Shown in pieces: positions 4,956 through 53,702 of a stretch of 64,000 nt of DNA. Position numbers and translations under genes: made by a program. This DNA comes from Gemmatimonadota bacterium. Lineage in GTDB: Bacteria; Gemmatimonadota; Gemmatimonadetes; Palauibacterales; Palauibacteraceae. Position 1 is the stretch's first letter, and each line of letters begins with the position of its first letter. The stretch spans positions 37,494 to 101,493 of the forward strand of contig JBHHZD010000002.1 in the NCBI GenBank assembly GCA_046757885.1. The letters are read 5' to 3'. The notes beneath the pieces were generated by a model. It saw nothing but the letters and a program-made list of their open reading frames with translations. It searched no databases and was not told the origin of the DNA.

Positions 4956-6136
4956 CAGTCGAGCGTCTCCCGCAAGAAAGGGCGCGGATCCGACATGCGC
5001 AGGATCTCGGCGCGGTCCCGGCCCGGACGGGCCGCCAGAAAGGCGGCCACCGCCCCCAACCTCCCATCCTTCGCCTGCGTCGGCCCGCCGCCCGCGGTGG
5101 TGCCTCGCGTCCTGAGCCTCGCGATCAAGTGGTCGACCTCACCCCAGAACCAGCGGCTGCGGATGCCTGTGCGGTACTCCATGACCGGAGCCGGACGTCC
5201 CCCGGTCGCCGCCTCCACCAGCAGGCGCGGAAAATCCACCCCGGCGTCGATCGCGAGCTGTAGGGATCCCCAGAATCGGCCGTTCACTTCCATGAGCACG
5301 GGAACGCCCGTCGCCCCGTCGACCTTGTACTCGACCATGGCCACGCCCTGCCAGTCGTGGTGTCGCAGGAGCTCCAGGGATTTCTCGAACAGCGCTGGTT
5401 CCAGGGGGATGCTCTCCCGGTTCACGCTCACGCCGCCCGACGGGGGCTTCTCGCGGATTCGCCGGTGCGCGAAGCGGGCCAAGCACGTGTCCTTCCACAG
5501 AAGAAGGAACACCCCGATCCCGGGCCCGGAGATCCTCCGCTGAAGCATCACAGGATAGGCCTCCCGGGGGAGTCGATCGAGCGCCTCGCAAAGGTCGCCT
5601 GGATCCGTCACATGCCGCACGGACAGCTTCCGGGCCCGACCCGAGTCCGTCCGGTGCACGGAGCGGGCCGGCTTGACGACCGCGGGAAACTCGAGTCCCT
5701 CGACCTCGGCCTCATCGGGCTCCGGACCGGTCAGGAGCACCCGCTCCGGCGTCGCGATTCCGATCGCATCGGCCCGGTCGAGCAGCGCGACCTTGTCCGA
5801 GACTCTTCGGAACGCGTCCGGTTCGGGCCCGGGAACGACGACCCCGGAACCGCACGTCCGGCCTTCCTGGATGCTGAGCCAGGCGGCGTCCGTGACCGGA
5901 ACCAGGACGTCCACGCCCCACGCTTTCACGCGCCGCGCGAGCGTTTCGTCGTGCCCCACCGGATCGTCCAGCGGATCCGGCGTGACGGCCACGTCCGACG
6001 CCCACCGGGACGAGCCGGCCAGGCAAGGCGTCCGGCGAGCCGCCACGTACACGCGATGGCCGGCCGCCCCGAGGGACCGGACGATCGCGAGGCTCGCCCG
6101 TTGCTCTCCGTCGGTCACGAGGACGGTGGGCTTCAC
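4940..6136 (-). CDS. ATP-grasp domain protein (carboxylate-amine ligase-like)
   Basis: 398 aa. ATP-grasp-type central region (PAVVKPARS..., MVEYKVD... EVNGRFWGS) and a pre-ATP-grasp N-terminus. Confidence 0.7.
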   Translation of the reverse strand: MKPTVLVTDGEQRASLAIVRSLGAAGHRVYVAARRTPCLAGSSRWASDVAVTPDPLDDPVGHDETLARRVKAWGVDVLVPVTDAAWLSIQEGRTCGSGVVVPGPEPDAFRRVSDKVALLDRADAIGIATPERVLLTGPEPDEAEVEGLEFPAVVKPARSVHRTDSGRARKLSVRHVTDPGDLCEALDRLPREAYPVMLQRRISGPGIGVFLLLWKDTCLARFAHRRIREKPPSGGVSVNRESIPLEPALFEKSLELLRHHDWQGVAMVEYKVDGATGVPVLMEVNGRFWGSLQLAIDAGVDFPRLLVEAATGGRPAPVMEYRTGIRSRWFWGEVDHLIARLRTRGTTAGGGPTQAKDGRLGAVAAFLAARPGRDRAEILRMSDPRPFLRETLDWWRGR

Positions 6137-7059
6137 GCGAGCAGTCCCGCGAGCCTGAGCTCGAGCCCGCGCGGCGAGAGGCCCGCGGGGACGTTCAGGC
6201 GCGGAAGGTCGAGCTCCGCATCACGACGCCGCACGCGCCCTCCGTCGATCCGGAATCCGGCCCGGTAGCCGGCATCTCGCGCCGCCCGGCGGACGGACGG
6301 CGACGACAGGCCGTACGGATAGGAGATCCAGGGCTCCACCTGCGAGTAACGCTCGGCGAGCCAGGCCAGAGGCCGTGCGAGCTCGTCGCCGAGCTCACGG
6401 GGCCCCAGGCGGGTCAGGTTCGGGTGGCTCCAGGTGTGCGAGGCGAGCCGAACCAGGGAACACGAAGCGGCCGCCCGCAGCTCTTCCTCCGTCGCCGACC
6501 TCGCGTGCGATGGGATGGCCGGCTCTCCCTCCGCCGACGTCGGCTCCGTGGTCCCCGGTCCCACGGCGGCCCGGATCTCCGCCTCCCGTCCCCGCCACTG
6601 CCCCAGCGCCCGATCCCTCAGGGACGGCTCCAGGCCGCCCCCCCCCGGCCGGGCGAGCACATCCCACCAGAACGCATGTCGACCGAGGAGGCCCGGAGAC
6701 ACGAACACGGTGACGGGAAGGCCGCGCCGCGCGAGCTCCGCCAGGCCCAGGGTGAGAGCGCCGGAATAGGCGTCGTCGAACGTGAGCGCGACCCGCACCG
6801 GGCCCGCAGCGGCACCCGGATCCTGGATGATCTGCCCGAGATCGACGATGTCCGCTCGATGCTGGAGCACATCGATCAGGGCACGGAAGCGACCGAGCGG
6901 GAGGTGGAGAGAAGCGTCGCCGACGGACGGAACGTCGTCCGGCACGACGTCGTGGAATGCGAGAACGAGCGGCCGCGGCCGGGAGAGGGAGCGGGCGACG
7001 GTCGCGACGCCGAGGCGCACGAGCGCCGCTTCCCCGAGAGCTTTCGGCGTCGTCCTCAT
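6133..7059 (-). CDS. Polysaccharide deacetylase (CE4 family)
   Basis: NodB-like motifs: LTFDDAY..., TVFVSPG..., HTWSHPNL. Confidence 0.7.
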   Translation of the reverse strand: MRTTPKALGEAALVRLGVATVARSLSRPRPLVLAFHDVVPDDVPSVGDASLHLPLGRFRALIDVLQHRADIVDLGQIIQDPGAAAGPVRVALTFDDAYSGALTLGLAELARRGLPVTVFVSPGLLGRHAFWWDVLARPGGGGLEPSLRDRALGQWRGREAEIRAAVGPGTTEPTSAEGEPAIPSHARSATEEELRAAASCSLVRLASHTWSHPNLTRLGPRELGDELARPLAWLAERYSQVEPWISYPYGLSSPSVRRAARDAGYRAGFRIDGGRVRRRDAELDLPRLNVPAGLSPRGLELRLAGLLA

Positions 7060-7069
7060 GCCGGGTGGG

Positions 7070-8452
7070 CTAGCCGCGGGTGCCGGATCTCGCGTTCAGC
7101 TGCCGCCGCCACGCGGGCACCAGCTGAGGGCGGGGCCGGGGGCCCGCAACGCCCCGCCGCCCGCCGACGCCGGGCACCACGAAGGCGGCGGCGTCTTCCC
7201 TCATCCGTCGCTCGACGGACACGTACATCCCGGTCACGAAGGCGGCGAGCATGTAGATCGGGTCGAGATACGCAAAGGACAGAAAGACGCTCGTCGAGAT
7301 GAACCCGATGATGGCGACCGGAAAGTACGTCGTCGCGTGATACAGAAAGCGCTGCTCGGGGTCCCCACGCGCCCAGGTGGTGGGCAATCTCCGTCTCATG
7401 CGCAGCATGCTGAACAGCGAGCCGAACACGAGCGAGGACCAGAGGATCAGGCCGGGGAAGCCGAGCTCTGCCCCGACCTGGAGAAACGAGTTGTGGGCGG
7501 CGCTCCACTTGATGTGCCAGCCCGTTCGATCCTGGAAATCTCTTACCACGGAGGACATCTGGCTCCCCTCCGCGCGAGGGAAGTTGTCGATGCCGATCCC
7601 GAAGAACGGGTGACCCATCATGTACCCGAACCCGCGCTTCGTCACCTCACGCCGGCCGTACTTGGACGTCCAGTTGTAGTCCTCCTTCGGCTTCGTGATC
7701 GTCATCATCTGGTCCCAGTAACCGACGGGCGCCGTCGCGACGAGCGTGATCCCGACGACGAGAAGGAACGCCACCCGCTTCACGACCGAGACGTTCGTGG
7801 CCAGGAACAGGAGCGCCAGGCCGACGGCCACGGCACCGACGAACGCGCCCCGAGAGCCCGTTCGGGCCACGGTCGCCCCGATCGCCCCGAGGACGATCGC
7901 GCAGAAGATCTTGCCCTTCGTCCTCGCGACCTGGAACGCCAGCAGCGTGAGCGGCAGGGCGATCATCAGGATGAGCCCGAGGTCGTTCGCGTCGTACGTG
8001 TAGAGGTGGCTCAGTCGGGCCGCGGCGCCCCCGCGCGGCTTGCTGATCCCGAACACGAAGAGCGCCATCCAGCACAGGATGGCGGCGCTGATGACGTAGG
8101 CCCAGACGAAGCGATACAGGTCCCTTCCGCTGCGGATGGCCGCGATGAGCAGGAAGGCGAGGATGAGCACCTTCGAGTACTCGGTCAGGATGTACATGGC
8201 CGAGCCCCCGATCGAGATCCCGAATGCCGTGGACAGGCAGGCCATCACGGCCAGGGCCACGATGACGCGGGGCGGCCAGAAGCGAAGCAGCTTCCCCGTG
8301 TTCAGCTGTTTCGGGTGCGTCATCGCGTACAGAAGCGTGAGGAGCGCGAGCAGCAGCGCGGGACGCAGGGGGGCCAGAAAGCGAAAGTGCTGATGGATGC
8401 GGCTCACCGTCACGAGAATGAGGAGGAACAGCAGTGCCCGGAGACCATCCAT
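7070..8452 (-). CDS. O-antigen ligase / Wzy-like polytopic membrane protein
   Basis: About 12 predicted TM helices plus a periplasmic loop region (NSFLQVGAELGFPGLILW) typical of the O-antigen ligase (Wzy_C) family. ATG at 8452 (MDGLRALLFLLIL); the ORF is open to an alternative start at 8584. Confidence 0.6.
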   Translation of the reverse strand: MDGLRALLFLLILVTVSRIHQHFRFLAPLRPALLLALLTLLYAMTHPKQLNTGKLLRFWPPRVIVALAVMACLSTAFGISIGGSAMYILTEYSKVLILAFLLIAAIRSGRDLYRFVWAYVISAAILCWMALFVFGISKPRGGAAARLSHLYTYDANDLGLILMIALPLTLLAFQVARTKGKIFCAIVLGAIGATVARTGSRGAFVGAVAVGLALLFLATNVSVVKRVAFLLVVGITLVATAPVGYWDQMMTITKPKEDYNWTSKYGRREVTKRGFGYMMGHPFFGIGIDNFPRAEGSQMSSVVRDFQDRTGWHIKWSAAHNSFLQVGAELGFPGLILWSSLVFGSLFSMLRMRRRLPTTWARGDPEQRFLYHATTYFPVAIIGFISTSVFLSFAYLDPIYMLAAFVTGMYVSVERRMREDAAAFVVPGVGGRRGVAGPRPRPQLVPAWRRQLNARSGTRG

Positions 8453-8957: not shown

Positions 8958-10976
8958 ATGGGTGAGAGGGAAACCGAGGACGGAGTCGAGGCCGGGCGCC
9001 CGGTGGTGGCGGAGCGTACGCTCACGACGGCGGTCGTGGGCGCCGGTCCGATGGCGCAGCACCACCTGAGGGCGATCCTCCGGATTCCACAACGCCCTCG
9101 GGTGCTCGGAGTCGTGGATCCGACGCCGGCGGCCCGCGAGCGTCTGAGGCAGGCGTTTCCCGACCTCGATACGTTCGAGAGCCTGGAGGATCTCCTAGCC
9201 GTGTCCGTCCCGGACGTGCTCCATGTGTGCACGCCGCCCGAGGCCCACGAACGGGCGGCCGAGATGGCCCTGCGGTCGGGCTGCCATGCCTACGTCGAGA
9301 AGCCCGTGTGCGAAACGGCGGCGGGCGCCCGCCGGCTCGTGGACCTCGCCCGGGAGAGAGGCCGGATCCTATGCCCGGGCCACCAGCTCCTGTTCGAGCC
9401 GGCCGCACGTCGTCTCACGGCCCTCGCCGGCACCATCGGCCACCTGCAGCACGTCGAGAGCTACTTCTCGTTCCGAACCGTGCGAACGGCTGCGGGCGGT
9501 CGGACGCCCATCCGGGACGACATGCAGTTGCTCGACGTCCTCCCGCACCCGGTGTACCTGCTCCTTCACTGGCTGGGTGGAGAGTACGGTGAGCCCGCCA
9601 GGATCTCGTCCATCGAGCGCGGGCCCGGCGGGACGATTCACGCCCTGGTCAGCAGGGGGCAGACGACGGGTGTGCTCGTCGTCACCCTGGACGGCAGGCC
9701 TGTCGAAAGCTACGTGCGCCTGGTCGGAACCAACGGGACCCTGCACGCCGACTTCGTGCGCGGGACGGTGCAGCGCCTAGTGGGCCCGGGCGTCTCGACG
9801 ATCGACAAGCTGTTGAATCCCTATCGGCTGGCGCGCCAGCTCGGCTTCGGAACGACGGCGAGCCTGGGGCGGCGGCTCGCGAGGCGACAGCGCAGCTACC
9901 CGGGCCTCGTGGAGATCTTCACGGCCTTCTATCGGGCGGTGCTGGGAAACGGAAGTGCCCCCATCGAGGACGACGAGATCGTCGAGACGGTGGCCCTGTG
10001 TGAGGAGGTGGCGGCCGTGCTCCGGTCTCCGGGGGCCGCGCCATCTCAGGGATTCGCCGGCCGGAAAGATCGCATCCTCGTCACCGGCGGGACGGGCTTC
10101 TTCGGCCGCTCGGTCGTCCAGGCCCTGACGTCGCGCGGTCGCGCGGTGAGGGTCGTGGCCCGCCGATCCCCCCCTCCCTGGGAGCGACTCGCCGGCGTCG
10201 AGTACGTGGAGGCGGATCTCGCGGAAGGAGTTTCGGGCAGGATCCTCGAGGGGTGCGCGCAGGTGATCCACTGCGCCGCGGCGACGAGCGGAGGTTGGGC
10301 GGAGCACCAGCGCAATTCCCTGGACGCGACGGAGAATCTCGTTCGCGCGGCGGCAGCCGCGGGGGTCGGCGACTTCGTCCACGTGAGCAGTCTCGCCGTC
10401 GTCGAGGCCGAGCCGGGTCGTCCTGTCCGGGAGGACTCCCCGTTGCTGTCGGAGGCCCGCGGAAGCGGCCCGTATGCCTGGGGTAAACTGGCGTCGGAGG
10501 AGATCGTGACCCGACTCGGCGCGGAGACGGGGATCCGGACCATCATCTTGAGGCCCGGCGCCATCATCGACTTCGACGATCTCGATCCCCCCGGCCGGCT
10601 GGGCCGGCGGATGGGCAACCTCTTCGTGGCCGTCGGCTCGCGGTCGGAGCCGCTGGGCGTCGTCGATCGGCGCTTCGCGGCCGCGGTCGTGGCGACGGTC
10701 GTCGAGAACCCGGACCGGGCCCCGGCCGTGTTGCACGTTCTGGCTCCCCGTCTCCCCACGAAGCGGGAGCTCGTGGGCCGTCTTCGAGAGCGCAATCCGG
10801 ACCTGAGGGTGGTGTGGCTTCCATGGCTCCTTCTCGGTCCACTCTCCCTCACGGCGTCTCTCCTGCAGCGGATTCTCCGGCCCGGGAGCCCACCCGTGAG
10901 CCTGGTCAGGGTCTTCAGGCGCGAGACCTTCGATACGGAGGCTGTGCGTCGCCTCACCTCCCCGACGACCGGCTAG
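8958..10976 (+). CDS. Fusion protein: Gfo/Idh/MocA-family NAD(P) oxidoreductase (N-terminal) + NAD-dependent epimerase/dehydratase SDR (C-terminal)
   Basis: N-terminal half: Rossmann TAVVGAGPMAQHHL and EKP motif (HAYVEKPVC). C-terminal half: ILVTGGTGFFGRS... YAWGKLASE (YxxxK). 672 aa. Confidence 0.7.
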   Translation: MGERETEDGVEAGRPVVAERTLTTAVVGAGPMAQHHLRAILRIPQRPRVLGVVDPTPAARERLRQAFPDLDTFESLEDLLAVSVPDVLHVCTPPEAHERAAEMALRSGCHAYVEKPVCETAAGARRLVDLARERGRILCPGHQLLFEPAARRLTALAGTIGHLQHVESYFSFRTVRTAAGGRTPIRDDMQLLDVLPHPVYLLLHWLGGEYGEPARISSIERGPGGTIHALVSRGQTTGVLVVTLDGRPVESYVRLVGTNGTLHADFVRGTVQRLVGPGVSTIDKLLNPYRLARQLGFGTTASLGRRLARRQRSYPGLVEIFTAFYRAVLGNGSAPIEDDEIVETVALCEEVAAVLRSPGAAPSQGFAGRKDRILVTGGTGFFGRSVVQALTSRGRAVRVVARRSPPPWERLAGVEYVEADLAEGVSGRILEGCAQVIHCAAATSGGWAEHQRNSLDATENLVRAAAAAGVGDFVHVSSLAVVEAEPGRPVREDSPLLSEARGSGPYAWGKLASEEIVTRLGAETGIRTIILRPGAIIDFDDLDPPGRLGRRMGNLFVAVGSRSEPLGVVDRRFAAAVVATVVENPDRAPAVLHVLAPRLPTKRELVGRLRERNPDLRVVWLPWLLLGPLSLTASLLQRILRPGSPPVSLVRVFRRETFDTEAVRRLTSPTTG

Positions 10977-12217: not shown

Positions 12218-13432
12218 TCACCTCGGGCCCGGCGAGCGCTCGCGGGAGGTCTTCCGCCATTCTCGTTCTCCGCGCCCCAGCAGGGTCCCCCCTGCGACGA
12301 GGACCCGCCAGAGTGCGTAGCCCGGGAGGCGGAGAAAGGCGAGCATGGCGGAACCCGGGCGCGGGTGCCGAAGGAGCACGACGACCACGGCGACGACCTC
12401 GGGCGCCAGGCTGACAAGGGCCAGCACCGCGAGAAGAACCGATAGGCCTCCGTCGAGGAGCCACAACGAAAGCACGCCGGCGATCGTCGCGAGGACCAGG
12501 TGCAGTACGGGACTCGCCCCGCCGAGCTCCGCGAGGCCGTCGATCTTCTGCCGGAAACTCACGTGCGAGCCTAGGAGACGGGGTGTCCAGATCCTGAAGA
12601 CCCGTGAGCGGCCCGCGAGCCAGCGCCTCCGCTGGGTCCTGCCCTGAGCGGGCGTCGCCGCTTCCTCCGACAGCAGACGGGCGCCCGGGACGTAGTCAAT
12701 CTCGATGCCGGCGACGGTGTACTCGGCGTACAGTTCCCAGTTCTCGGTCAGCGAGAACGAGCTCCAGCCCCTCCCGGCGAGCAGGTCGGCCCCGATGCAC
12801 ATTCCGTTTCCCGTCAGGGGACAATTCAGGCCCGCCGCTCGCTTGAGGGGATACCCGACCTCGTATCGCATGCGGGTCAGCAGGCCCGCCAGTCGAGTGA
12901 GCCAGGACTCCCATTCGTTGCGGATGCCGAAGTAGGCCTGGCAGGCCTTGCTCCGAAGTGGAGCCGCCGCGGCGAGAGCGCGTCCGAAGTCGGGTGCGAC
13001 GACAGAGTCGGCATCGAGGATGATGCACGCGTCCCACTCGGAGAGAGGAACCCGCTCGAGCGCCCATGCCAGGGCCCATGGCTTGCCCCGGCGGGAAGGG
13101 TCGTGACGCTCCAGCACCGTCGCTCCGGCCCGTCGGGCCATCTCCGGCGTCCCATCCTCACAGTTGTCCGCCACGACGACGACGCCGACCGCGTCGGACG
13201 GATAATCCAGATCCGTGACGGAGCGGACGCAAGAGTCTATGAGAAGCTCCTCGTCATGCGCCGGAATCAGGAAGAGGAGCCGTGGTGGGGAAGCCGAAGC
13301 TCGTACCTCCGCAGGCTCGGCACGCACGCCACGTCGGAAAGAGAGGACGGACAGGATGACCGAAAGGAGGGGGAGGGACAGATACAGAAGACCGACGGAG
13401 AGAATCAGGGCGACGGGCAGGCTTCCGTTCAC
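12218..13432 (-). CDS. Processive GT2 (synthase-like) membrane glycosyltransferase, paralog of 10997..12190
   Basis: Same architecture as 10997..12190: FLIPAHDEE..., VVADNCEDGT, ILDADS, TENWELY, QRRRWLAGR, with N- and C-terminal TM helices. Confidence 0.75.
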   Translation of the reverse strand: MNGSLPVALILSVGLLYLSLPLLSVILSVLSFRRGVRAEPAEVRASASPPRLLFLIPAHDEELLIDSCVRSVTDLDYPSDAVGVVVVADNCEDGTPEMARRAGATVLERHDPSRRGKPWALAWALERVPLSEWDACIILDADSVVAPDFGRALAAAAPLRSKACQAYFGIRNEWESWLTRLAGLLTRMRYEVGYPLKRAAGLNCPLTGNGMCIGADLLAGRGWSSFSLTENWELYAEYTVAGIEIDYVPGARLLSEEAATPAQGRTQRRRWLAGRSRVFRIWTPRLLGSHVSFRQKIDGLAELGGASPVLHLVLATIAGVLSLWLLDGGLSVLLAVLALVSLAPEVVAVVVVLLRHPRPGSAMLAFLRLPGYALWRVLVAGGTLLGRGEREWRKTSRERSPGPR

Positions 13433-13475
13433 CGGCGGGCCGGCGCAGTCTGTCGCGGCGGCCCGTCCCCGGTGG

Positions 13476-14624
13476 TCAGCGACCGCTCACGTAGGCGTGG
13501 TCGATGCGCAGGTACTGATCCTGAGGCACCGTCTGGCCGGTTCCACCCCATACCGCGTCGAACTTCACCACGCTCCATACCTTCGAATCGTTTCCCGTCG
13601 AGAGCTGAACGTTCGAATAGTCGCCGGCCGGGGACCCATCGAGCCAGAAGCGGACGACTCCGTCGCTGTTCGATCCGCTGTTGAATCTGGCGTACACCTC
13701 GATCTGGTGCCAGCTACCTCGGCGGATTCGGCCCGTTCCCCGATTCACGCTGAGGTTCCGGTTGCGGAAGCGCGGGTCCTGGGTCCGTACCTGGAGGGTG
13801 AGCGGCCCGGATTTCGTTCCCTCGGCGATCACGTACAGAGGATTCGACGCGAACCCGGCCTGAGGGATGTAGACCATCTTGTTGACGCCGCTCTTCGGGT
13901 GCCCGTACCAGTTGGACGAAAACTGGATCCAGTAGGAGACGTAGATCTCCTTCCACCGATGACCCCGCACGCTCTTCCCGAAGTGTCTGTAGGGCGACTT
14001 CCCCCCGCCGAAGCCGGCCGGATAGCGGATCTGCAGAACGCTCGGGGCACTGACCGGGGCCGTCGGATCGGAGAGAATCTTCAGGTTGCCGCTCGGATTC
14101 CCGTTGGATCCGTTCCACCACCACCCGTCCTCGATCATGGCATCGAAGGACCGCTCCGTCGCCGGCGTCATCCCCGCCGGCTCGTTCGGGTGCCCCGTAC
14201 TCTGCGACGGCGGCGGGGGCGCGGATGGCGGCGGAGGTTGTGCCGGACTGCTCGCGCTCGAGACCCGGACCGTCGCCTCGTCCCGCAGCACGAGTCCGCT
14301 GCCCTCACCCTGCGCTTCGACCGTCACCTCGGCCGAGCCGGCTCTCCGCCCCTCCGCGAGTCCTCCGGCCGAGACGGTGACGATCTCGGGATCCGTGCTG
14401 CTCCAGGCGAACGTGTAGCCGCTGACGGGTCGACCGCGTTCGTCGCGGACGGATGCCGTGAGCTGGCTGCGCGATCCGGGGGCGAGCACGATGTCCGACG
14501 GCGAGACGACGATGACGGCCGCTGTCGGAGCGCCGGTGGGGGCAGGGGACGGATCCGGCCCCGTGACGCCGGACGCGCCGGACTGACAGGCGAGAAGGGG
14601 AAGCAGCAGGCTGCCGAGACTCAT
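13476..14624 (-). CDS. Secreted lipoprotein with Big_2 (bacterial Ig-like) domain and C-terminal jelly-roll-like domain (possible polysaccharide lyase/hydrolase)
   Basis: ATG at 14624 gives signal peptide plus lipobox MSLGSLLLPLLAC. A Big_2-like segment (VIVVSPSDIVLAPGSRSQLTASVRD... YTFAWSSTDPEIVTV), a Pro-rich linker (PAQPPPPSAPPPPSQS), then a W/Y-rich beta domain of about 220 aa. Confidence 0.6.
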   Translation of the reverse strand: MSLGSLLLPLLACQSGASGVTGPDPSPAPTGAPTAAVIVVSPSDIVLAPGSRSQLTASVRDERGRPVSGYTFAWSSTDPEIVTVSAGGLAEGRRAGSAEVTVEAQGEGSGLVLRDEATVRVSSASSPAQPPPPSAPPPPSQSTGHPNEPAGMTPATERSFDAMIEDGWWWNGSNGNPSGNLKILSDPTAPVSAPSVLQIRYPAGFGGGKSPYRHFGKSVRGHRWKEIYVSYWIQFSSNWYGHPKSGVNKMVYIPQAGFASNPLYVIAEGTKSGPLTLQVRTQDPRFRNRNLSVNRGTGRIRRGSWHQIEVYARFNSGSNSDGVVRFWLDGSPAGDYSNVQLSTGNDSKVWSVVKFDAVWGGTGQTVPQDQYLRIDHAYVSGR

Positions 14625-14884
14625 GAGTCGCCACCCTGTCGGGCTTCTTCGTGGCCGGTGCGGAGCCCGAGACTCCGCGACTCCGGTTCGTACACCGCAA
14701 GGTCGGACCGGGTTCGGCCGGACCGCAAGGCCGGCCGGATCTCGACGTGCTGGATTCCTGTTGCGTCTGGACGCATCCATCTCGCGGTGTCTCGCTCCCT
14801 CGTCGACTCGCATCCGGGCGACGGTTCGTCGCGGCTCGGGCGAATCCGGGATCGAGATGCGTGCCTCGATGGCAAGGCACGGTT

Positions 14885-14950
14885 TGACAACATGTTATGG
14901 ATTTTCATATCGGGGTCTTGGGGAGATTTTCTAGCCAGGTCCGCTACTTA
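14885..14950 (-). promoter_or_regulatory. AT-rich island in the intergenic region upstream of the lipoprotein gene (candidate promoter/operator)
   Basis: The only markedly AT-rich stretch (ttgacaacatgttatggattttcatatcgggg... ttttctag) in an intergenic region of about 375 nt (14625-14999); includes a TTGACA hexamer. Confidence 0.3.
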
Positions 14951-14999
14951 TTGCGCCTTCCGGCGAGGCCCCCGGCCTCTCGCGCCCGGTGGGAGGAGA

Positions 15000-16205
15000 T
15001 CAGAAAGCGGGCGCCCGCTCGCGCAGCCACGCCTCGAGCCGCCGGCAGTCCCCCTCCGTCAACCGCCCGTGCGTCGGCAGGGTGAGGAGACGCTCGGCCA
15101 GCGCCCGGGCGCCGGGGACGTCGCCGTGCGACGAGGGGGTCAGGGCGTCCCGGAGCGGCGGCAGCCGGCTCAGGGGCATCGGGTACCCGGGCATCACCCC
15201 GAGATCCCGACCCGCATCACGGGCGAGGTCGCGGACCCCGGACTCACGGCTCAGGAGGGGGAGACGGAGGTAGCCCGGGGTGGCCCCGGTCGGGACGGGA
15301 AACGGCCGCAACGGGGCCTCCGCGGCCGAGAGCGCGGCGAGCAGCCGGCCCGCGTGTCGCCGGCGGGTCTCCGCTTCCGCCTCCACGCTCATCGTCGTCC
15401 TCGACAGGACGCCGTGCATCGCGGCCGTCCCGAGCCGCGGTACGTGCGGTCGCCGGTACACGGTGTCTCCCAGGCGCAGCAGCGGGATCGCCGTCGGCAC
15501 CCGGTAGAGCTCGGGCCGACCCAGGATCCAGGTCGCGGTCGCCCGCGCGAGATCCGCCCAGCCCCGGCGGCCGGCCCCCGGAACCGGCCTCGCGCGCTCC
15601 AGAAGGCGTCGCCCGAGCTCGTTGTTCGCGAGCAGGAGACCACCCGCCCCTCCGGTCAGCCCCTTGCCCCGCCCGAAGCTCAGCACTCCGACATCTCCCA
15701 GCGTGCCCAGGGGACGACCCCGGAACGCGCCGCCGATGCCCTGCGCCGCGTCCTCGATGACGGCCGCGTCCGACTCGCGGGCCAGCTCGCGTACCGGGGA
15801 GAGGTCCACGGGAAGGCCGTACAGGTGGGCCACCACGATCGCGATCGCCCCGTCCCGGATCACCGACCGCAGGGAGTCGAGGTCCGGCCCGAGGGTCTCC
15901 GGGCTCACGTCGTACAGCGCGACCCGCGCCCCTGCGCCGATGGCCGCGGTCGCCACGTCGTAGCACGAGTACGCGGGGAGCGCGACGGGGCCGTCGCGCT
16001 CCTCCAGCGCCGTCCGAATGGCGAGCGAGAGGGCCGTCGTGCCCGAGTCGGCGGCCAGGTGGTCCAGAGGGCCGAAGCGGGTCCGGACCCAGGCCGACAG
16101 CCGGTGCTCGTAGGGACCCGGCCCCACGGCCGCGGCCCGGACGCCAGCCAGAATCGCCCGGGCACCAAGGGGCGAAGAGGCCGGAAGCTGGCGGCGCACG
16201 CTCAC
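15000..16205 (-). CDS. DegT/DnrJ/EryC1/StrS-family PLP-dependent sugar aminotransferase
   Basis: 401 aa with the family lysine region (VLSFGRGKGLTGG), an N-terminal PAYSCYDVATA segment and AxxIVVAHLYG. Confidence 0.75.
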   Translation of the reverse strand: MSVRRQLPASSPLGARAILAGVRAAAVGPGPYEHRLSAWVRTRFGPLDHLAADSGTTALSLAIRTALEERDGPVALPAYSCYDVATAAIGAGARVALYDVSPETLGPDLDSLRSVIRDGAIAIVVAHLYGLPVDLSPVRELARESDAAVIEDAAQGIGGAFRGRPLGTLGDVGVLSFGRGKGLTGGAGGLLLANNELGRRLLERARPVPGAGRRGWADLARATATWILGRPELYRVPTAIPLLRLGDTVYRRPHVPRLGTAAMHGVLSRTTMSVEAEAETRRRHAGRLLAALSAAEAPLRPFPVPTGATPGYLRLPLLSRESGVRDLARDAGRDLGVMPGYPMPLSRLPPLRDALTPSSHGDVPGARALAERLLTLPTHGRLTEGDCRRLEAWLRERAPAF

Positions 16206-16208
16206 CGG

Positions 16209-17192
16209 CTACCCGTTCCGTCCGGTCTCGGCCCCGTACCCGAGGCGGCTCGCCACGGGCTCGACGGCGCGTCGGAGGATCCTCCGCTCCGAGCGGGGGA
16301 TCGGGTCCAGAGCTCCCCGCGCCCGGCCGGGTACGCGGCGGTCGAGCACGCCGCGGTCCAGCTCCAGCTCCAGGAAATTCTCCAGCGTCTCGACCGGGAG
16401 ACGGCCGGAGCACAGGTCCTCGTAGGGCACCAGGAGTCCGCCCACCGCCTCCGCGCCGGAGAGGAACCCCTCGACCAGGGCCCGCCAGTGTCTCCCGAAG
16501 TGACCCGGTGTCAGGACGGGCTGCGCGGGCCATCGGTCGTACCAGTTCCGGAAGACCCGGTAGGACCGATAGGCACGGTACGGGTTCCGGTACAGGAACA
16601 GGAACCGGGCCTCGGGGAAGAGCCACCGGAGCCAGGCGGCGTGATCGATGTCGAGCCGCACCTCCTTCAGGCCCCAGCGCGGATACCCTTCCCTCTCGGC
16701 GGGCGTGGCGAACAGACTCATCATGAAGGCCCGGTGCGCCCTCAGCACGTGGACCGGATGCGGATACAGGTTCGCGATCCACTCCCGGCTCGCCTCGGTC
16801 GCCTCGCGTGCCTTGAGGTCCTCCAGGAAGAAGTGATCCGGGGGATCGCCGGGACGGAACGCTCTCAGGGATTCGGCGAGGCGGCGTATGAAGTCGGAAT
16901 GGGCGAACGGCTCGCCCCAGATCATCACGCCCTCCGCCGAGGTGATGAGCCGCTGGAGGAGGGTGGAGCCGGACCTCCAGCCCGCGGACAGGATGAAGAT
17001 CGGACGGTCCGGCGGGGCGTCTGCCGGCATCTCCCAGCGGCTCTCGATGATCTCTATGGCCTCCGGGATGCTGGGCACCGACCTCAGCAGCTTCCGGTGG
17101 CGGCGCCGGTGCACGATCGCCCCGGTCCGCGCCTCGATGGGCACCTTCACGGGCCTGCCCAGCCGCTTGAGCCGTTCCTTCCAGTTCCTCAT
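16209..17192 (-). CDS. Sulfotransferase (second copy)
   Basis: PAPS-binding P-loop ILSAGWRSGSTLL. ATG at 17192 (MRNWKERLKRL); an alternative upstream ATG at 17285. Confidence 0.65.
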   Translation of the reverse strand: MRNWKERLKRLGRPVKVPIEARTGAIVHRRRHRKLLRSVPSIPEAIEIIESRWEMPADAPPDRPIFILSAGWRSGSTLLQRLITSAEGVMIWGEPFAHSDFIRRLAESLRAFRPGDPPDHFFLEDLKAREATEASREWIANLYPHPVHVLRAHRAFMMSLFATPAEREGYPRWGLKEVRLDIDHAAWLRWLFPEARFLFLYRNPYRAYRSYRVFRNWYDRWPAQPVLTPGHFGRHWRALVEGFLSGAEAVGGLLVPYEDLCSGRLPVETLENFLELELDRGVLDRRVPGRARGALDPIPRSERRILRRAVEPVASRLGYGAETGRNG

Positions 17193-17199
17193 GAACCCC

Positions 17200-18222
17200 T
17201 CATGGGATGAAGCGCACGAGTCGCGGACCGAGCCGATTCGCGAGAGGAAGCGGCAACCGTCGCCACAGCCGGGTCGCCAGCGCATACCGGGGCGACTCGG
17301 GCGAGGGCGTGCCGGCCTGACCGGCGTTCGATCGCTGGTACCACCAGAGAGTCTCGTCCTCGCCGCCCCACTGTCGCTTGAAACGGTGCGTCCCGCCGCC
17401 CGGCGTGCAGCGGCCGAAGTTGAACAGCGTCGCTCCCTCCCGCGTCATCTCCTCCATGAACCGCCAGTAGAGGAGCATGTTCGGGGCGATGCGATTGTAG
17501 GGGCGGAGGGACGAGGCCCAGGTCAGCTCGAACTCGTGGGCCCAGCGGAAGCCGCAGCCCCCCGCGACGGGCCGACCTCCCAGCCACGCGCACCCGACCC
17601 GAAACTCGGTCGGAAACGCCCGTGCGATGGAGGCGAACAGCTCGCGGGGCAGGACGGGCGTTCCCAGGTCGCGCATGTGCCGCGCGAACACCCGATAGAA
17701 GGGCCCGATCTGATCCTCTCCGAACCGGACCTCGACGCCTTCCTTCCGGGGTCGCCGCACCTGGCTCCGTACCTTCGCCGCGAGTCCGTCCCAGAGGACC
17801 TCGGGCGCCTCCGCGGGCAGCGGCATCGTGACCGTGACCTTCCGGTGCGAGACCGGCAGGTCGATGGGCAGTGGCCGTCGCGAGCGAAGCTCCAGCAGAT
17901 CGGCGCCGCTTTCCTCGGACAGCCGGACCGCGGCCCCGGCGAGTCGTCGCACCGCCTTCTCCTCACCCAGCGGCCCCCCGTAGTTCAGGAACGGCATGGA
18001 GACGAGGTAGTGCCCGAACAGCGCGCTCCGGACGCGCACGAGCGGAAGCACGCCCACCAGCGATCCCGACTCGTCGCGACAGGCCAGGTACGGGCATTCG
18101 TGCCCAAATCCGTCCTCGAGGATCGCCTTCCACCCGTACAGATGGAAGGGCGTCCAGAAGGGCCGGTCGCGGACGAACGCGTCCCACTCGGGCCCTGCAC
18201 CGTCGTAGGGACCGAGCGTCAA
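17200..18222 (-). CDS. FemAB-family / GNAT-fold acyl(aminoacyl)transferase-like protein
   Basis: 340 aa with FemAB-like architecture (FHLYGWKAILEDGFGHE... FNFGRCTPGGGTHRFKRQWGGE). ATGA overlap with the upstream deacetylase gene. Confidence 0.6.
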   Translation of the reverse strand: MTLGPYDGAGPEWDAFVRDRPFWTPFHLYGWKAILEDGFGHECPYLACRDESGSLVGVLPLVRVRSALFGHYLVSMPFLNYGGPLGEEKAVRRLAGAAVRLSEESGADLLELRSRRPLPIDLPVSHRKVTVTMPLPAEAPEVLWDGLAAKVRSQVRRPRKEGVEVRFGEDQIGPFYRVFARHMRDLGTPVLPRELFASIARAFPTEFRVGCAWLGGRPVAGGCGFRWAHEFELTWASSLRPYNRIAPNMLLYWRFMEEMTREGATLFNFGRCTPGGGTHRFKRQWGGEDETLWWYQRSNAGQAGTPSPESPRYALATRLWRRLPLPLANRLGPRLVRFIP

Positions 18223-19106
18223 GAGTCCGGCCCGCCGTTCTCGGGAGGGGTGCCGTCACGAACCTTGAAGCAGCGGTCCACCGAGGTGAACCGGAATTCC
18301 GACAGAAGCCGCTCGAGCCGCTCGCCCACGGTGGCGAGTCCGCCGTAGTGGCGCCGGCGCGTGAGCCAGGGAGCCCGGACGCGAGGCTGGTCGGGATCCA
18401 GCTCCCACGGGTGCACGTAGAACACGGCCGGCGTCCCGTTCTCGGCTCTCTGGCGAAAGGCGTGGCGTGAGATCCGGTACGGGAGCTGGCGGAAGTACCC
18501 GCCGCCCGAGGCCGGAATCCGAATCCCGCGCCACGTCGCCAGCGTCATCGGGAGCTCCAGGATCACGCCCGCCTCGCGGGCGATGAGATGCGGCTCCGGC
18601 AGGGCCCCGGGATAGCCGTAATTCGCCCGGCGGATCGGAAACAGGCTCGAGTCATACCGGTAGCCCTCCTCGAGGAGGACGTCGAAGGCCCACTCGCAGC
18701 CGGGGAGCAGCGAGAAGCTCGGCGCCCGGTACCCGATCACCGCCCGTCCCGCGAGATCTCCCAGCAGGGCCCGGGAGTCCCGCACTTCCTCCCGGAACGC
18801 CTCCCGACGGAGCTCGCTGACCCGCCGATGGCTCCACCCGTGCGAAGCGATCTCGTGCCCCTCGGCCGCGATGCGCCGCACGAGATCGGGGTGGCGGCGA
18901 CCGATCCAGCCGAGAACGAAGAACGTGGCTCTCGCATCGTGCCGGTCCAGCAGCCCGAGGAGGGCGTCCACGCCCCTCTCCACCCGGCTCGGCATCGACT
19001 CCCACTCGTCCCTCGCGATGCGGGACTCGAACGCGTGCACCTGGAAGTACTCCTCGACGTCCACCGAGAAGACGTGCGTGCCCGAGGCCACGCCGCTCGC
19101 GATCAC
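18219..19106 (-). CDS. Polysaccharide deacetylase (CE4)
   Basis: HVFSVDVEEYFQ... FFVLGW... SHGWSHRR, typical of the deacetylase subfamily that begins with DVEDYF. Confidence 0.75.
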   Translation of the reverse strand: MIASGVASGTHVFSVDVEEYFQVHAFESRIARDEWESMPSRVERGVDALLGLLDRHDARATFFVLGWIGRRHPDLVRRIAAEGHEIASHGWSHRRVSELRREAFREEVRDSRALLGDLAGRAVIGYRAPSFSLLPGCEWAFDVLLEEGYRYDSSLFPIRRANYGYPGALPEPHLIAREAGVILELPMTLATWRGIRIPASGGGYFRQLPYRISRHAFRQRAENGTPAVFYVHPWELDPDQPRVRAPWLTRRRHYGGLATVGERLERLLSEFRFTSVDRCFKVRDGTPPENGGPDS

Positions 19107-27526: not shown

Positions 27527-27630
27527 GGCGGCGGGTGCCGCATCCTGACCGCCCGGTCTCCTTCGTGCAAGTCCGGAGCCGCCGGACCGGGCCCCTTTCG
27601 AGGGCCGATCGAGTCGACTACCCTGTGTGC

Positions 27631-28884
27631 ATGAGGCCGACCTCCCGTCGTGTCGGAATCTGGCTCCTCATCGCCAGCGTTCTTCTCATCGCCGTAGCCA
27701 CGCTCACCCCCGCGAACTCGAACACGCTCGACTTCTGGAGCTTCTGCCTCGTGTGCGGCGAGCAGGGCGTGGCCGACGTGATCTCGAACCTCATCCTGTT
27801 TCTTCCACTCGGCGTCGCGCTCGGACTCCTCGGCCGAAGTCGGCTCAAGCCCTATGCGCTCGGGCTTCTCCTCTCGACCGCGATCGAGCTGATTCAGGTC
27901 TTCATCCCAGGCCGCGACGCGAACCTCGCGGATGTGGTGTGGAACGGGGCCGGGACGCTCCTGGGCGTGTTCCTGGCCCATTCCGCGGGCCGGTTCCTCG
28001 ACGTGCGGGAGCGGACAGCCGCCCGCCTGTCGCTGGCCTCGGCGGTCGCCGCGATCGGGGCGTGGACGGCCACGGCGGTTCTCCTGGCACCGGCGTTTCC
28101 GTCGGACATGCCCTACTGGGGAGAGCATCAACCCGTGCTCGACCACCTCGGGCGCTATCGAGGCGTCCTGCTCGAGGCGTCGCTCGGAGGACAGATCGTG
28201 CCGGAGGCGCAGCTCCCGGACGCCGAGCGGATCCGCGGGCTGCTCCACGAGAGCGCCCCCATTACGGTGCGCGCGATCGCCGGGCCGCCGCCCGGGAAGC
28301 TCGCCCCCGTCTTCTCGATCGACGGGTATCAGACGGGGCTCGTGCGCGTGGCGATCGACAGGCAGGACGTCGTGTATCATCACCGGATGCGGGCGGAGGC
28401 CCTGCGGCTCGACCGGCCCGTGTTCCGACTGCCGGACGGGATGCGAGACGTGGCCGAGGGGGACACCTTCCGCATCGAGGTGCTCGGGCGAGGGGGACGG
28501 ACGTGCATCGCCGTGAACGGGACGGGCTCGTGTCGATTCGGCTTCACGGTCGCCGACGGCTGGCGTCTGCTCAGCGACTTCGATCCCTTCCCGCTCTGGG
28601 CGGCGCTCCTCATCGGGGCGATCTGGATGGCGGCGCTGATGTTCCCGAGCGGCTACTGGGCCCGGCCGGGCTGGGAGACGCCCCTCGGACTCGTCCTCGC
28701 CGTCGCGGCGCTGGCAGCCATCCCCGCCGCCTCTCCCCTCCTCGCGACGCCGCCGTTCGCCGTGACCGGGGCTGCGAGCGGCTTCGTCGCCGGCACGCTC
28801 GCGGGCCGCCTCCGCCGCCGGGCGATGGCACCCCGCCCGGATCAGGCGAGCACCACCTTCCGCCCGGAGCGAGCGGACTCGTAG
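27631..28884 (+). CDS. VanZ-like family membrane protein with C-terminal extension
   Basis: ATG at 27631. VanZ signature ADVISNLILFLPLGVALG inside an N-terminal domain of about 4 TM helices, followed by a soluble middle region and further TM helices. Confidence 0.55.
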   Translation: MRPTSRRVGIWLLIASVLLIAVATLTPANSNTLDFWSFCLVCGEQGVADVISNLILFLPLGVALGLLGRSRLKPYALGLLLSTAIELIQVFIPGRDANLADVVWNGAGTLLGVFLAHSAGRFLDVRERTAARLSLASAVAAIGAWTATAVLLAPAFPSDMPYWGEHQPVLDHLGRYRGVLLEASLGGQIVPEAQLPDAERIRGLLHESAPITVRAIAGPPPGKLAPVFSIDGYQTGLVRVAIDRQDVVYHHRMRAEALRLDRPVFRLPDGMRDVAEGDTFRIEVLGRGGRTCIAVNGTGSCRFGFTVADGWRLLSDFDPFPLWAALLIGAIWMAALMFPSGYWARPGWETPLGLVLAVAALAAIPAASPLLATPPFAVTGAASGFVAGTLAGRLRRRAMAPRPDQASTTFRPERADS

Positions 28885-29900
28885 CAGGCGGCCACGACGG
28901 CGAGGGCCGCCCGGCCGGCCTCGCCGTCGGCCGGCGCGGGGCCTCCGGTCCGGAACGCCTCGAGCGTCCGGCCGATGAGGTCACGCGTGGCCCGCATGGC
29001 CGGATTCGACGGATTCCGGGCCAGGGCGACCCGCCGATCGGCGACCTCCCGCCACGCGACGCCGGCCCTTCCGTTCTCGAGCCGCACGTGGGGCCGCACG
29101 CTCCGCAGCAGGCCGAGGCTCAGGCGCACCCGTCCCCCGAACGAAGCGCGCAGCGAGGCCCGCTCGGCGTCCGCCCGCACGTCGAAGTACTGCGTGTCGC
29201 CCTTGCACAGGCGGTTCTGGACGATGTGGGCGAGCCGTCCGCGCGAGAACTCCAGCGTGACGAGGGCGACCGAATCGGAGTCCGTGTCGCGCACGCCGCA
29301 CGTGGACGTGGTCGCGGAGACCGTGACCGGGCTCTCGCCGAACAGGAACAGCGCATAGTCGACGAGGTGGATGCCCGCCTCGAAGAGCGTTCCGTTCAGG
29401 AGCTCTCCCCGCCAGCCGGGCTCGGCCCACGGGGGAAGATCCATGCTCTGCCACGCCTGGAGGAACACGAGCTCGCCCGTCTCCGCGGCGCCCAGCTCGT
29501 CCGCCAGGGCCTCGAAGATCGGCATGACCCTGAACTCGTGATTCACGGCGAGCCGCCGGCCGTTCCGTGCGGCGCTCGCGAGCATGCGATCCGCCGCCTC
29601 GACCGTCGGCGCGATCGGCTTCTCGCAGATCACGTCGGCGCCCGCCTCCAGAGCCTGAAGAGCCGCGTCCTCGTGCGTCGCCGGCGGCGTGCCCACGATG
29701 ACGGCGTCGGGCGCCGCGGACGACAGGAGCGCTCCGAAATCCTCGTGGACGGGGATCCCGAACTTCCTGCCCGCTCTTTCCCGGTGCTGCGGATCCGTGT
29801 CGCACCCGCCCACGATCTCGACGCCCGGCAGGGCGCGGAGCGCCGGAAGGTGCAGGGTCGTCCCCGCGTTGCCCAGTCCCAGGACCGCGATTCTCTTCAT
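28842..29900 (-). CDS. Gfo/Idh/MocA-family oxidoreductase
   Basis: MKRIAVLGLGNAGTTLHLPAL... CEKP motif (VICEKPIAP). Confidence 0.8.
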   Translation of the reverse strand: MKRIAVLGLGNAGTTLHLPALRALPGVEIVGGCDTDPQHRERAGRKFGIPVHEDFGALLSSAAPDAVIVGTPPATHEDAALQALEAGADVICEKPIAPTVEAADRMLASAARNGRRLAVNHEFRVMPIFEALADELGAAETGELVFLQAWQSMDLPPWAEPGWRGELLNGTLFEAGIHLVDYALFLFGESPVTVSATTSTCGVRDTDSDSVALVTLEFSRGRLAHIVQNRLCKGDTQYFDVRADAERASLRASFGGRVRLSLGLLRSVRPHVRLENGRAGVAWREVADRRVALARNPSNPAMRATRDLIGRTLEAFRTGGPAPADGEAGRAALAVVAACYESARSGRKVVLA

Positions 29901-40953: not shown

Positions 40954-41332
40954 AGCCATGAACGGCATCGATCGAGAGACGGAGGAGGCCCTGTCGGGGC
41001 AGCTCGCGCTCGCATTCGGCCCTCTTCACAAGCGGGCCCTCGGACTCGCGGTGGGCACGGCGAGCGGTGCGATCGTCTTCCTCCTGACCGTCTTCCACGT
41101 GGTCGTGCGGCCCGACCCGGCGCCGCAGATCGGCCTGTTGCGGGAGTACTTCACGGGCTACACCGTGTCCTGGCCCGGCGCCGTCGTCGGAGGCCTGTGG
41201 GCGTTCACGGTCGGGTTCTTCGTGGGCTGGTTCATCGCCTTCGCGCGGAACCTCGTCATCGCGACCTCGATCTTCATCACCCGAACCCGTCAGGAGCTCG
41301 CCGCCACCCGCGACTTTCTGGACCACATCTGA
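40943..41332 (+). CDS. Small 2-TM membrane protein, tandem paralog A (unknown family)
   Basis: 129 aa; alternative ATG at 40958. Shares the motif LLxEYFTGYTVSWPG with the next ORF, and has two hydrophobic helices. Confidence 0.4.
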   Translation: MRDEAMNGIDRETEEALSGQLALAFGPLHKRALGLAVGTASGAIVFLLTVFHVVVRPDPAPQIGLLREYFTGYTVSWPGAVVGGLWAFTVGFFVGWFIAFARNLVIATSIFITRTRQELAATRDFLDHI

Positions 41333-41352
41333 CCGACCTGGAGGCCGAACCG

Positions 41353-42515: not shown

Positions 42516-42522
42516 CCGCCTC

Positions 42523-44826: not shown

Positions 44827-44859
44827 GGCAGCCGGGTAACCCCCAACCGTGAGGGCAAG

Positions 44860-45555: not shown

Positions 45556-45571
45556 TCCGGAGGGCCCCGAC

Positions 45572-50955: not shown

Positions 50956-50964
50956 AGGCCGCCC

Positions 50965-52131: not shown

Positions 52132-52203
52132 GCGGCGAAACCTCATCCCCGCGCACGCGGGGGGACGTCGGGTGCTCCGATACCAGCCTACATCAACGTC
52201 GTA

Positions 52204-53700: not shown

Positions 53701-53702
53701 GC

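Follow-up and report, generated by a model that had tools for sequence, protein, structure and literature searches.

A CE4 deacetylase and a FemAB-like transferase translationally coupled in a Gemmatimonadota glycan locus, and their link to PEP-CTERM sorting genes among relatives

In a 64,000-nucleotide stretch of a Gemmatimonadota genome (contig JBHHZD010000002.1; the whole stretch is called the window below), the gene for a polysaccharide deacetylase of family CE4 overlaps the start of a gene for a FemAB-like transferase. The first-pass annotation of this DNA took the two for the TIGR03006/TIGR03019-type pair that accompanies exosortase systems, and profile hidden Markov models (HMMs) bear this out. 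The deacetylase scores 345.5 bits on TIGR03006, 'XrtA system polysaccharide deacetylase' (E 1.6e-103; model positions 3-271 of 272; curated cut-off 276.2 bits), and the transferase scores 297.8 bits on TIGR03019 (E 8.9e-89; positions 2-330 of 330; curated cut-off 260.35 bits). Moreover, the FemAB-like protein is 100% identical to NCBI MFQ5745733.1, from a 109,819-bp contig of a Gemmatimonadota metagenome-assembled genome (MAG), which is named 'FemAB family XrtA/PEP-CTERM system-associated protein'. The family assignment of the pair is confirmed and was already present in public annotation. Gene calling relied on codon usage learned from the window's own sequence, the G+C content of which is ~67-75%; 53 genes were called, and those at the locus are the following.

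18219-19106, minus strand: CE4 (NodB-fold) deacetylase with C-terminal DUF3473; 295 amino acids, GTG start, motif SVDVEEYF
17200-18222, minus strand: FemAB-like double-GNAT transferase, putative N-aminoacyl transferase on an amino sugar; 340 amino acids, TTG start
15000-16205, minus strand: DegT/DnrJ/EryC1 sugar aminotransferase; PF01041, 124 bits
16209-17192, minus strand: sulfotransferase between the FemAB-like and DegT genes; PF13469, 53.2 bits
19103-20089, minus strand: GT2 glycosyltransferase of ArnC/GtrB/DPM1 type (polyprenyl-phosphate sugar synthase-like); NF007986 (ArnC), 88.7 bits
20065-20997, minus strand: another GT2 of ArnC/GtrB type, with which the co-directional block begins; NF007986, 179.2 bits; PF00535, 120 bits
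21180-23775, plus strand: divergent FAD oxidoreductase (glycerol-3-phosphate dehydrogenase-like; NF008899/NF009906, ~163 bits, under the cut-off) and MprF-type flippase-like membrane protein (TIGR00374, 71.6 bits, above the cut-off of 43.2)

The six minus-strand genes form a tight, co-directional operon in the order GT2, GT2, CE4, FemAB-like, sulfotransferase, DegT. As read from the sequence, the CE4 stop and the FemAB-like start share the tetranucleotide TTGA (18219-18222), which agrees with the coupling proposed at first pass, and the stop of the upstream GT2 and the CE4 start share GTGA (19103-19106); the GT2, CE4 and FemAB-like genes are translationally coupled. The FemAB-like gene ends at 17200 and the next ATG lies at 17192. 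An open reading frame of 1331 codons on the plus strand (13215-17210), which overlaps the end of the pair, is antisense to four real genes and was rejected as a high-G+C artefact. Each protein of the GT2 pair carries two C-terminal transmembrane helices; neither a signal peptide nor a transmembrane segment is found in the CE4, FemAB-like, sulfotransferase or DegT proteins. Since the CE4 and FemAB-like proteins have no such segments, their chemistry would be cytoplasmic and directed at precursors rather than at an exported polymer. Directly downstream of the operon lies a gene (13476-14813, minus strand) whose product combines a Big_2 domain with a polysaccharide-lyase-14-like domain at the C-terminus; homologues of this protein are encoded near the corresponding genes in 17 of the loci described below.

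The deacetylase matches Polysacc_deac_1 (PF01522) at 72.5 bits and DUF3473 (PF11959) at 146.5 bits, and it retains the motifs of CE4 metal-dependent deacetylases: D16-V-E18, H89 and H93 within SHGWSH, R127-A-P129, D152 and H232. Of these, D16 is conserved in 80-97% of 67 homologues, and E18, H89, H93, R127, P129, D152 and H232 in 97% or more. We take these residues to correspond to the canonical Asp motif, HxxxH, RxP, Asp and His, going by position and general knowledge of the family.

For the FemAB-like protein, the first-pass annotation had implied an aminoacyl-tRNA-dependent (or acyl) decoration of a sugar, and the predicted fold favours the former. The AlphaFold (AF2) model is of high confidence (pLDDT 91.8, pTM 0.89), and in a Foldseek search of the PDB it matched Weissella viridescens FemX best, over its whole length (E 4.7e-17; TM-score 0.62-0.65), in keeping with a double-GNAT fold. 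There followed FemX and FemA of Staphylococcus aureus, then Sba18/Sbb17, which are aminoacyl-tRNA-dependent peptide synthases crystallized with the amino sugar compound streptothrisamine, and then the MprF aminoacyl-phosphatidylglycerol synthase domain. All of the eleven best matches are FemX/FemA-family or aminoacyl-tRNA-dependent transferases, and CoA-dependent tandem GNATs enter the list only from ~E 2e-8. A family profile searched against the PDB reached FemX at E 1e-8 and Sbb17/Sba18 at ~1e-5, with no CoA-dependent GNAT up to E 1. On the FemX equivalog model NF047883 the protein scores 23.2 bits against a cut-off of 500; in fold it resembles FemX, but it lies outside the Fem families of peptidoglycan synthesis. 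The residues F281-K282 are invariant (n = 18 sequences) and, judging by motif position, resemble the Phe-Lys pair that holds the key lysine in FemX (Lys305) and in DhpH-C (Phe328-Lys329) (PMC12945691). The Pfam FemAB model, below its threshold, aligns residues 218-287 of the window protein to its positions 307-380. A phmmer search with a 95-residue fragment carrying the FK motif, made for alignment to FemX, returned only spurious matches to designed TIM barrels. Taken as a model-based prediction, the fold points to a FemX-type aminoacyl transferase, and we describe the protein as a putative N-aminoacyl transferase that would draw on aminoacyl-tRNA and modify an amino sugar.

One genome per species was scanned with an alignment of homologues of the FemAB-like protein. 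At least 586 relatives were found, and the best 80, almost all Gemmatimonadota MAGs at 57-66% identity, were used; the 82 loci that were clustered comprise the window, one locus for each of these 80 relatives and a duplicate of one of them. In 71 of the 82 loci there is a CE4 gene of the pair's family, on the same strand and at a median offset of ~1 kb upstream of the FemAB gene, and a pairing this frequent is not due to chance. A DegT gene is present in 69 loci and immediately downstream of the FemAB gene in 63. The conserved unit in Gemmatimonadota-type genomes is the triad CE4-FemAB-DegT, whose third member was missed at first pass, sound as the description of the pair itself had been. Compared with solved structures, the DegT protein scores 92 bits on WecE-type 4-aminotransferases and 47.6 bits on WbpE; an identification as WbpE was rejected, the protein being closer to WecE and perosamine-synthase-type 4-aminotransferases. 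The sulfotransferase stands between the FemAB and DegT genes only in the window and in locus L065, its cluster occurs in five loci, and it is a lineage-specific insertion.

What precedes the triad varies. The gene just upstream of CE4 is a divergent VanZ-like gene in 17 loci, a PEP-CTERM protein gene in 10 and an ArnC-type GT2 in eight including the window. The other seven with the GT2 in this place are L012, L015, L021, L023, L049, L065 and L067, with a tandem GT2 pair in all but L021; L012, L049, L065 and L067 also have a divergent FAD oxidoreductase and/or flippase-like gene in the same position as the window. Some relatives have a hexapeptide acetyltransferase or an AsnB-like amidotransferase gene beside the pair. 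The window encodes a VanZ-like protein of ~400-420 amino acids with an extended membrane C-terminus elsewhere (27625-28884, plus strand); it has homologues in 36 other loci, often divergent and directly upstream of CE4. In ~20 loci, one or two multi-transmembrane proteins of ~158 amino acids, for which no family match was obtained, recur just upstream of a PEP-CTERM gene and the triad (for example L001 7060-8171 and L002 7856-8966). The same upstream stretch holds a lipoprotein-like protein of ~329 amino acids and a CarboxypepD_reg/outer-membrane beta-barrel protein of ~1000 amino acids, and neither these nor the ~158-residue proteins have a counterpart in the window.

As a whole, the window is a single long region of glycan biosynthesis. 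Besides glycosyltransferases of families GT2 and GT4, it encodes two sulfotransferases, two CE4 proteins in addition to that of the pair, an ATP-grasp enzyme and a Wzy_C/O-antigen-ligase-like protein, together with short-chain dehydrogenase/reductase (SDR) and Gfo/Idh/MocA enzymes, methyltransferases, two MprF-type flippase-like proteins, one MOP flippase-like protein, a decaprenyl-phosphate phosphoribosyltransferase and several large GT-C-like membrane proteins. NCBIfam models were run on each of the 53 called genes, and Pfam was added for genes that had no NCBIfam match. Over positions 1-64000, no gene reaches the cut-off of any model for exosortase, EpsI, PEP-CTERM, PrsK/PrsR, Wza/Wzc or the TIGR03108 amidotransferase, nor is there an EpsA-type ATPase in the window; sub-threshold scores were obtained for stp1 (175 against 317), stp2 (169 against 409) and PEP_O_lig_1 (85.7 against 188). 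A regular expression for PEP-CTERM tails, run on six frames of the window, gave one match, antisense and spurious. When the relatives' exosortase, EpsI and PEP-CTERM protein were used as phmmer seeds against all six-frame window open reading frames, nothing was found at E <= 0.01, and the same holds for the relatives' sensor kinase, sigma-54 regulator, AsnB-like protein and hexapeptide acetyltransferase as seeds. Candidates for a hidden exosortase (the VanZ-like 400-residue protein, small proteins with five transmembrane segments and a 551-residue multi-transmembrane protein) matched no exosortase model or seed and were rejected. The statement at first pass that no exosortase, PEP-CTERM or Wza/Wzc gene is seen in the window was accordingly upheld by HMMs, tail search and seeds alike. 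Its corollary, that the locus probably continues on both sides, found no support: on the two flanks of the pair the window covers 17 kb downstream and 45 kb upstream, and neither flank holds any of the sorting genes. Where relatives have linked sorting genes, these lie within ~10 kb upstream, a stretch that in the window is occupied by the two GT2 genes, the FAD oxidoreductase and the flippase-like gene.

Among the relatives, sorting genes do accompany the pair. PEP-CTERM-like tails (e.g. TVTPEPVSMTLLATGLAGMGG..RRRK) are encoded on the same strand, 1.5-5.4 kb upstream, in 14 of the 64 loci whose upstream sequence extends over 3 kb or more. With 17.7 bits, one representative clears the TIGR02595 cut-off of 16, and another scores 18.0 on PF07589, just under the threshold of 20.7. 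In L043 the order is exosortase, EpsI, PEP-CTERM protein, CE4, FemAB, DegT, and in L023, which has the window-like GT2-GT2-CE4 layout, a partial exosortase and EpsI lie ~2-3 kb upstream of the GT2 pair. Two further contigs, L083 and L084, were reached from homologues of the relatives' exosortase; both have Exosortase_EpsH and EpsI followed by CE4/DUF3473, FemAB and DegT, with an AsnB-like gene inside the block of L083 and a PEP-CTERM gene inside that of L084. In L083 the FemAB-like protein passes the TIGR03019 cut-off and the CE4 protein that of TIGR03006. In L084 the FemAB-like protein passes too, but the CE4 protein falls just short (266.7 against 276.2), its match being limited to model positions 3-213 of 272. 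In some genomes, such compact cassettes pack exosortase, EpsI, substrate protein and triad into ~6-7 kb.

The triad-linked exosortases pass the generic model TIGR02602 (131-141 bits, cut-off 105.55) and fail the named types: XrtA with 132-148 against 208, XrtD with 167-176 against 400, and XrtB, XrtV and XrtW too. NCBI names their homologues just 'exosortase/archaeosortase family protein', and they may represent an unclassified type that is common in Gemmatimonadota (>3500 homologues). The stretches concerned are 2078-3743 of L043, 10001-11507 of L083 and 10001-11654 of L084; the separate EpsI best matches the C-terminal half of fused XrtD. Two-component genes beside the pair in relatives were considered as PrsK/PrsR and rejected (85.4 against 300 and 374.7 against 502.6), generic NtrC/AtoS models scoring higher. 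In this lineage, the link between the pair and PEP-CTERM sorting is genuine, though it is not a link to library-defined XrtA, and it is physically tight only in a minority of genomes. The proposed exosortase association was right for the relatives, in the PEP-CTERM genes upstream and in the exosortase and EpsI genes of L043, L023, L083 and L084, and too specific in naming XrtA. It is partly supported overall: the sorting link holds for the lineage, is not demonstrable for this genome, is not XrtA-specific and is not explained by a locus continuing just outside the window. A literature search on Gemmatimonadota and exosortase found no paper.

The pairing of a deacetylase with a FemAB-related protein in PEP-CTERM loci has long been known from phylogenetic profiling and locus descriptions (PMC1569441, PMC3684757). 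In proteobacterial XrtA (EpsH) loci, such as those of Rubrivivax gelatinosus (RGS1_10399/10400) and Nitrosomonas eutropha, the TIGR03006/TIGR03019 genes are likewise adjacent, deacetylase then FemAB-like, within a polysaccharide locus (PMC3684757, PMC7468200), and both window proteins lie above the cut-offs of these families. The differences are these. Missing from the window are genes for exosortase, EpsI, PrsK/PrsR, PEP-CTERM proteins, Wza/Wzc, the EpsA-type ATPase and the TIGR03108 amidotransferase; in its lineage DegT is a fixed third partner and the relatives' exosortase fails the XrtA cut-off; and the window pair is coupled to two ArnC-type GT2 genes and a sulfotransferase.

The closest studied analogue is the VimE/VimA pair of Porphyromonas gingivalis and Tannerella forsythia, in which a CE4 enzyme also adjoins a transferase that matches TIGR03019. 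In these bacteria, type IX secretion system (T9SS) cargo is joined by an amide bond to a 2-N-seryl or 2-N-glycyl, 3-N-acetyl uronic sugar. The CE4 enzyme of the pair is VimE, whose proposed role is to take off the 2-N-acetyl group; the TIGR03019 match is VimA, and exchange of vimA between the species switches the sugar-linked amino acid from Ser to Gly (PMC7468200). In the proposed chemistry, Ser or Gly takes the place of the 2-N-acetyl group once this has been removed, and the product serves as amine acceptor for a sortase-type transpeptidase (PMC7468200, PMC13086638). The role of VimA and VimE in the 2-N-seryl/glycyl linking sugar of P. gingivalis rests on genetics and mass spectrometry (PMC7468200), and Orf11/Sba18, a FemX-like enzyme, aminoacylates an amino sugar from Gly-tRNA in vitro (PMC12945691), which makes the first-pass statement that such decoration has not been characterized biochemically partly outdated. 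VimE/VimA differ from the window pair in serving the T9SS sortase PorU rather than an exosortase, and in using the WbpA/B/E/D (+ WbpS) route to a 2,3-diamino uronic acid, whereas the window has no WbpA, WbpD or AsnB-type genes and its DegT is not WbpE-like; the likeness between the pairs is drawn through family matches. With FemX of W. viridescens (335 amino acids) and Orf11/Sba18-Sbb17 (chains of 311-312) the window FemAB-like protein shares a similar size and, by prediction, the double-GNAT fold; a Phe-Lys pair near the C-terminus may be a further common feature, and Sba18/Orf11 acts on the amine of an amino sugar, as proposed for the window protein. However, identity to these enzymes is only 14-18%, and their acceptors are UDP-MurNAc-pentapeptide or a streptothricin intermediate.

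We favour, with moderate confidence, the reading in which CE4, FemAB-like and DegT make up a cytoplasmic module for sugar tailoring, with the pair at its core, that replaces the N-acetyl group on an amino sugar precursor by an amino acid. The CE4 enzyme would de-N-acetylate a nucleotide-linked or polyprenyl-phosphate-linked precursor of the N-acetylhexosamine (HexNAc) type. The FemAB-like enzyme would then transfer an amino acid from an aminoacyl-tRNA to the freed amine, by analogy with the proposal for VimE/VimA and with the demonstrated action of Orf11/Sba18 on streptothrisamine, and DegT would supply an amino sugar in the same pathway. The N-aminoacyl sugar would enter a surface glycan, where its free alpha-amino group may be the nucleophile for exosortase attachment of cleaved PEP-CTERM proteins, if an exosortase is present. 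Because the module is joined in the window to two ArnC/GtrB-type GT2 genes, its substrate there may be a polyprenyl-phosphate-linked sugar.

Several points weigh against this reading. To our knowledge, no enzyme of the TIGR03019 or TIGR03006 family has been assayed in vitro. The tRNA dependence of VimA has been presumed rather than demonstrated. The best Pfam match of the FemAB-like protein is the generic GNAT family Acetyltransf_6 (63.5 bits), its score on Pfam FemAB (PF02388) is 16.9 bits, below the 24-bit gathering threshold, and the resemblance of F281-K282 to the FemX/DhpH-C pair comes from motif position. The Wbp half of the VimA/VimE pathway is not reproduced in the window: the WbpA/B/E/D set for UDP-GlcNAc3NAcA is incomplete, with no WbpA (UDP-GlcNAc 6-dehydrogenase), WbpD, WbpI, AsnB-type or hexapeptide acetyltransferase gene in the window; the only Gfo/Idh/MocA candidates there lie at 28842-29900 and 8958-10976, and DegT is nearer to 4-aminotransferases than to WbpE. 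Finally, the searches for sorting genes in the window were negative, and most of the relatives' loci have no sorting genes within 10 kb, so that for the window's organism the sorting link is indirect. Going further, it is possible, if doubtful, that the triad makes the exosortase acceptor itself, an N-aminoacyl sugar whose amine takes the C-terminus of the cleaved PEP-CTERM protein, in parallel to the T9SS linking sugar. Gemmatimonadota-type genomes such as L043 and L084 would then hold the most compact natural version, headed by an exosortase of unclassified type, and the sub-lineage of the window would have been rewired onto two polyprenyl-phosphate GT2s, with a lipid-linked aminoacyl sugar as acceptor.

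A pathway resembling that of lipid A aminoarabinose, with no protein-sorting role in the window's organism, is in our estimate unlikely. The GT2s would load an N-acylated amino sugar, with its amine from DegT, onto polyprenyl phosphate; the CE4 enzyme, like ArnD, would deacylate it on the cytoplasmic side; re-decoration of the amine would fall to the FemAB-like protein; and after outward movement by the flippase-like protein, a GT-C-type membrane protein would transfer the product to a glycan, so that the module decorates an envelope polymer. The layout speaks for such a route. As in the ArnB/ArnC/ArnD pathway, a DegT aminotransferase, a polyprenyl-phosphate GT2, a post-loading CE4, a flippase and GT-C transferases stand side by side; the two GT2 genes and CE4 are translationally coupled; the GT2 proteins have two C-terminal transmembrane helices and ArnC as their best NCBIfam match; and the cluster GT2 directly precedes CE4 in seven other loci, often with the divergent flippase-like or FAD oxidoreductase gene. 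The window further holds flippase-like proteins, a DPM1/PpgS-like GT2, the decaprenyl-phosphate phosphoribosyltransferase, five large GT-C-like proteins and no sorting genes. Yet the equivalog cut-offs are missed by a wide margin (88.7 and 179.2 bits against 529 for ArnC, NF007986; 19.7 against 382 for ArnD, NF011923), no formyltransferase lies next to the pair, and the Arn pathway has no FemAB-type enzyme. L023, with the same GT2-GT2-CE4 layout, keeps an exosortase and EpsI ~2-3 kb upstream of the GT2 pair, and thus a lipid-linked substrate and a sorting role are not mutually exclusive.

The remaining alternatives concern the transferase donor and its acceptor. An acyl swap following NodB/NodA logic, in which CE4 removes the N-acetyl group and the GNAT-fold protein adds another acyl group from acyl-CoA, is disfavoured as quite improbable. 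It would accord with Acetyltransf_6 as the best Pfam match and FemAB as a sub-threshold one, with the original annotation of VimA as an acetyl-CoA transferase (PMC7468200) and with the CoA-dependent tandem GNATs among the structural matches. However, the top structural matches are all aminoacyl-tRNA-dependent, with E-values ~9 orders of magnitude better than those of the CoA-dependent tandem GNATs, and the profile search, which matches FemX and Sbb17/Sba18, reaches no CoA-dependent GNAT at E up to 1; exchange of VimA alters which amino acid sits on the sugar, and the invariant F281-K282 resembles, by motif position, the FemX/DhpH-C Phe-Lys pair. A peptidoglycan role, with FemX-type addition of cross-bridge amino acids to the peptide stem alongside a peptidoglycan deacetylase, is very unlikely and carries almost no weight with us. 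The distant likeness of the transferase to FemX, and of the CE4 protein to peptidoglycan GlcNAc deacetylases, is what it has in its favour, against scores of 23.2 where the FemX equivalog requires 500 bits and of 34-46 bits on PgdA models with cut-offs of 400-800. Peptidoglycan deacetylases act outside the cytoplasm, and the CE4 protein has no signal peptide; the neighbours are glycosyltransferases, sulfotransferases, Wzy_C and flippases, with no mur or fts genes found in the neighbourhood of the pair.

Other parts of the window merit a brief description. A trio on the minus strand (4940-8452) consists of the Wzy_C/O-antigen-ligase-like gene (7070-8452), a second CE4 deacetylase (6133-7020) and the ATP-grasp gene (4940-6136); each member occurs in 18-21 of the 82 loci at a median of +5 to +7 kb from the FemAB gene, and the three are adjacent and in the same order in L002, L056 and L065. 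The trio could be a second module that deacetylates and then ligates. The Gfo/Idh/MocA gene at 8958-10976 (plus strand) is an apparent fusion of a dehydrogenase with a UDP-GlcNAc 3-dehydrogenase-like N-terminus and an SDR epimerase/reductase domain. The 551-residue protein (32080-33735, plus strand) contains six or more hydrophobic segments and matches nothing in Pfam or NCBIfam; its sole homologue among the 82 loci is in L065. At 40958-43914 (plus strand), two small holin_4/GtrA-like membrane proteins, the decaprenyl-phosphate phosphoribosyltransferase (256 bits, cut-off 234) and the MOP flippase-like protein suggest a lipid-linked pentose donor pathway, as in arabinan synthesis. The stretch 44098-52146 is unrelated to the pair and encodes a VTC domain protein, a DUF4956 membrane protein, a 1048-residue CotH-kinase and beta-helix protein, a metallophosphoesterase and, convergently, a radical SAM/SPASM enzyme. 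From 52204 to 64000 lie the genes for five large multi-transmembrane GT-C-like proteins (LA_3751/3752-like; LIC_10190 family, 187.5 bits, cut-off 100; Agl23-like), an amine-oxidase-like FAD protein, a flippase-like protein and the DPM1/PpgS-like GT2, which points to extensive extracytoplasmic glycosylation from lipid-linked donors.

The window does not present a new kind of system, but a known pair in a new lineage context. Three things are new here: DegT as a conserved partner, the cassettes of relatives in which exosortase, EpsI, substrate protein and triad are compactly joined, and the GT2-coupled sub-architecture of the window. For annotation, this calls for caution: names that refer to an 'XrtA system' are attached to genes whose nearby sequence has no sorting machinery, and the relatives' linked exosortase is not XrtA by the same library. 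The deacetylase/FemAB-like pair is widespread in Gemmatimonadota and is fixed there to a sugar aminotransferase. The target to which exosortases attach PEP-CTERM substrates has been an open question since the system was described in 2006, and the only mechanistic lead on the acceptor comes by analogy, from the linking sugar that VimE/VimA make for the T9SS. The compact cassettes of the relatives would be convenient material for reconstituting this chemistry and offer a handle on the question of the exosortase acceptor.

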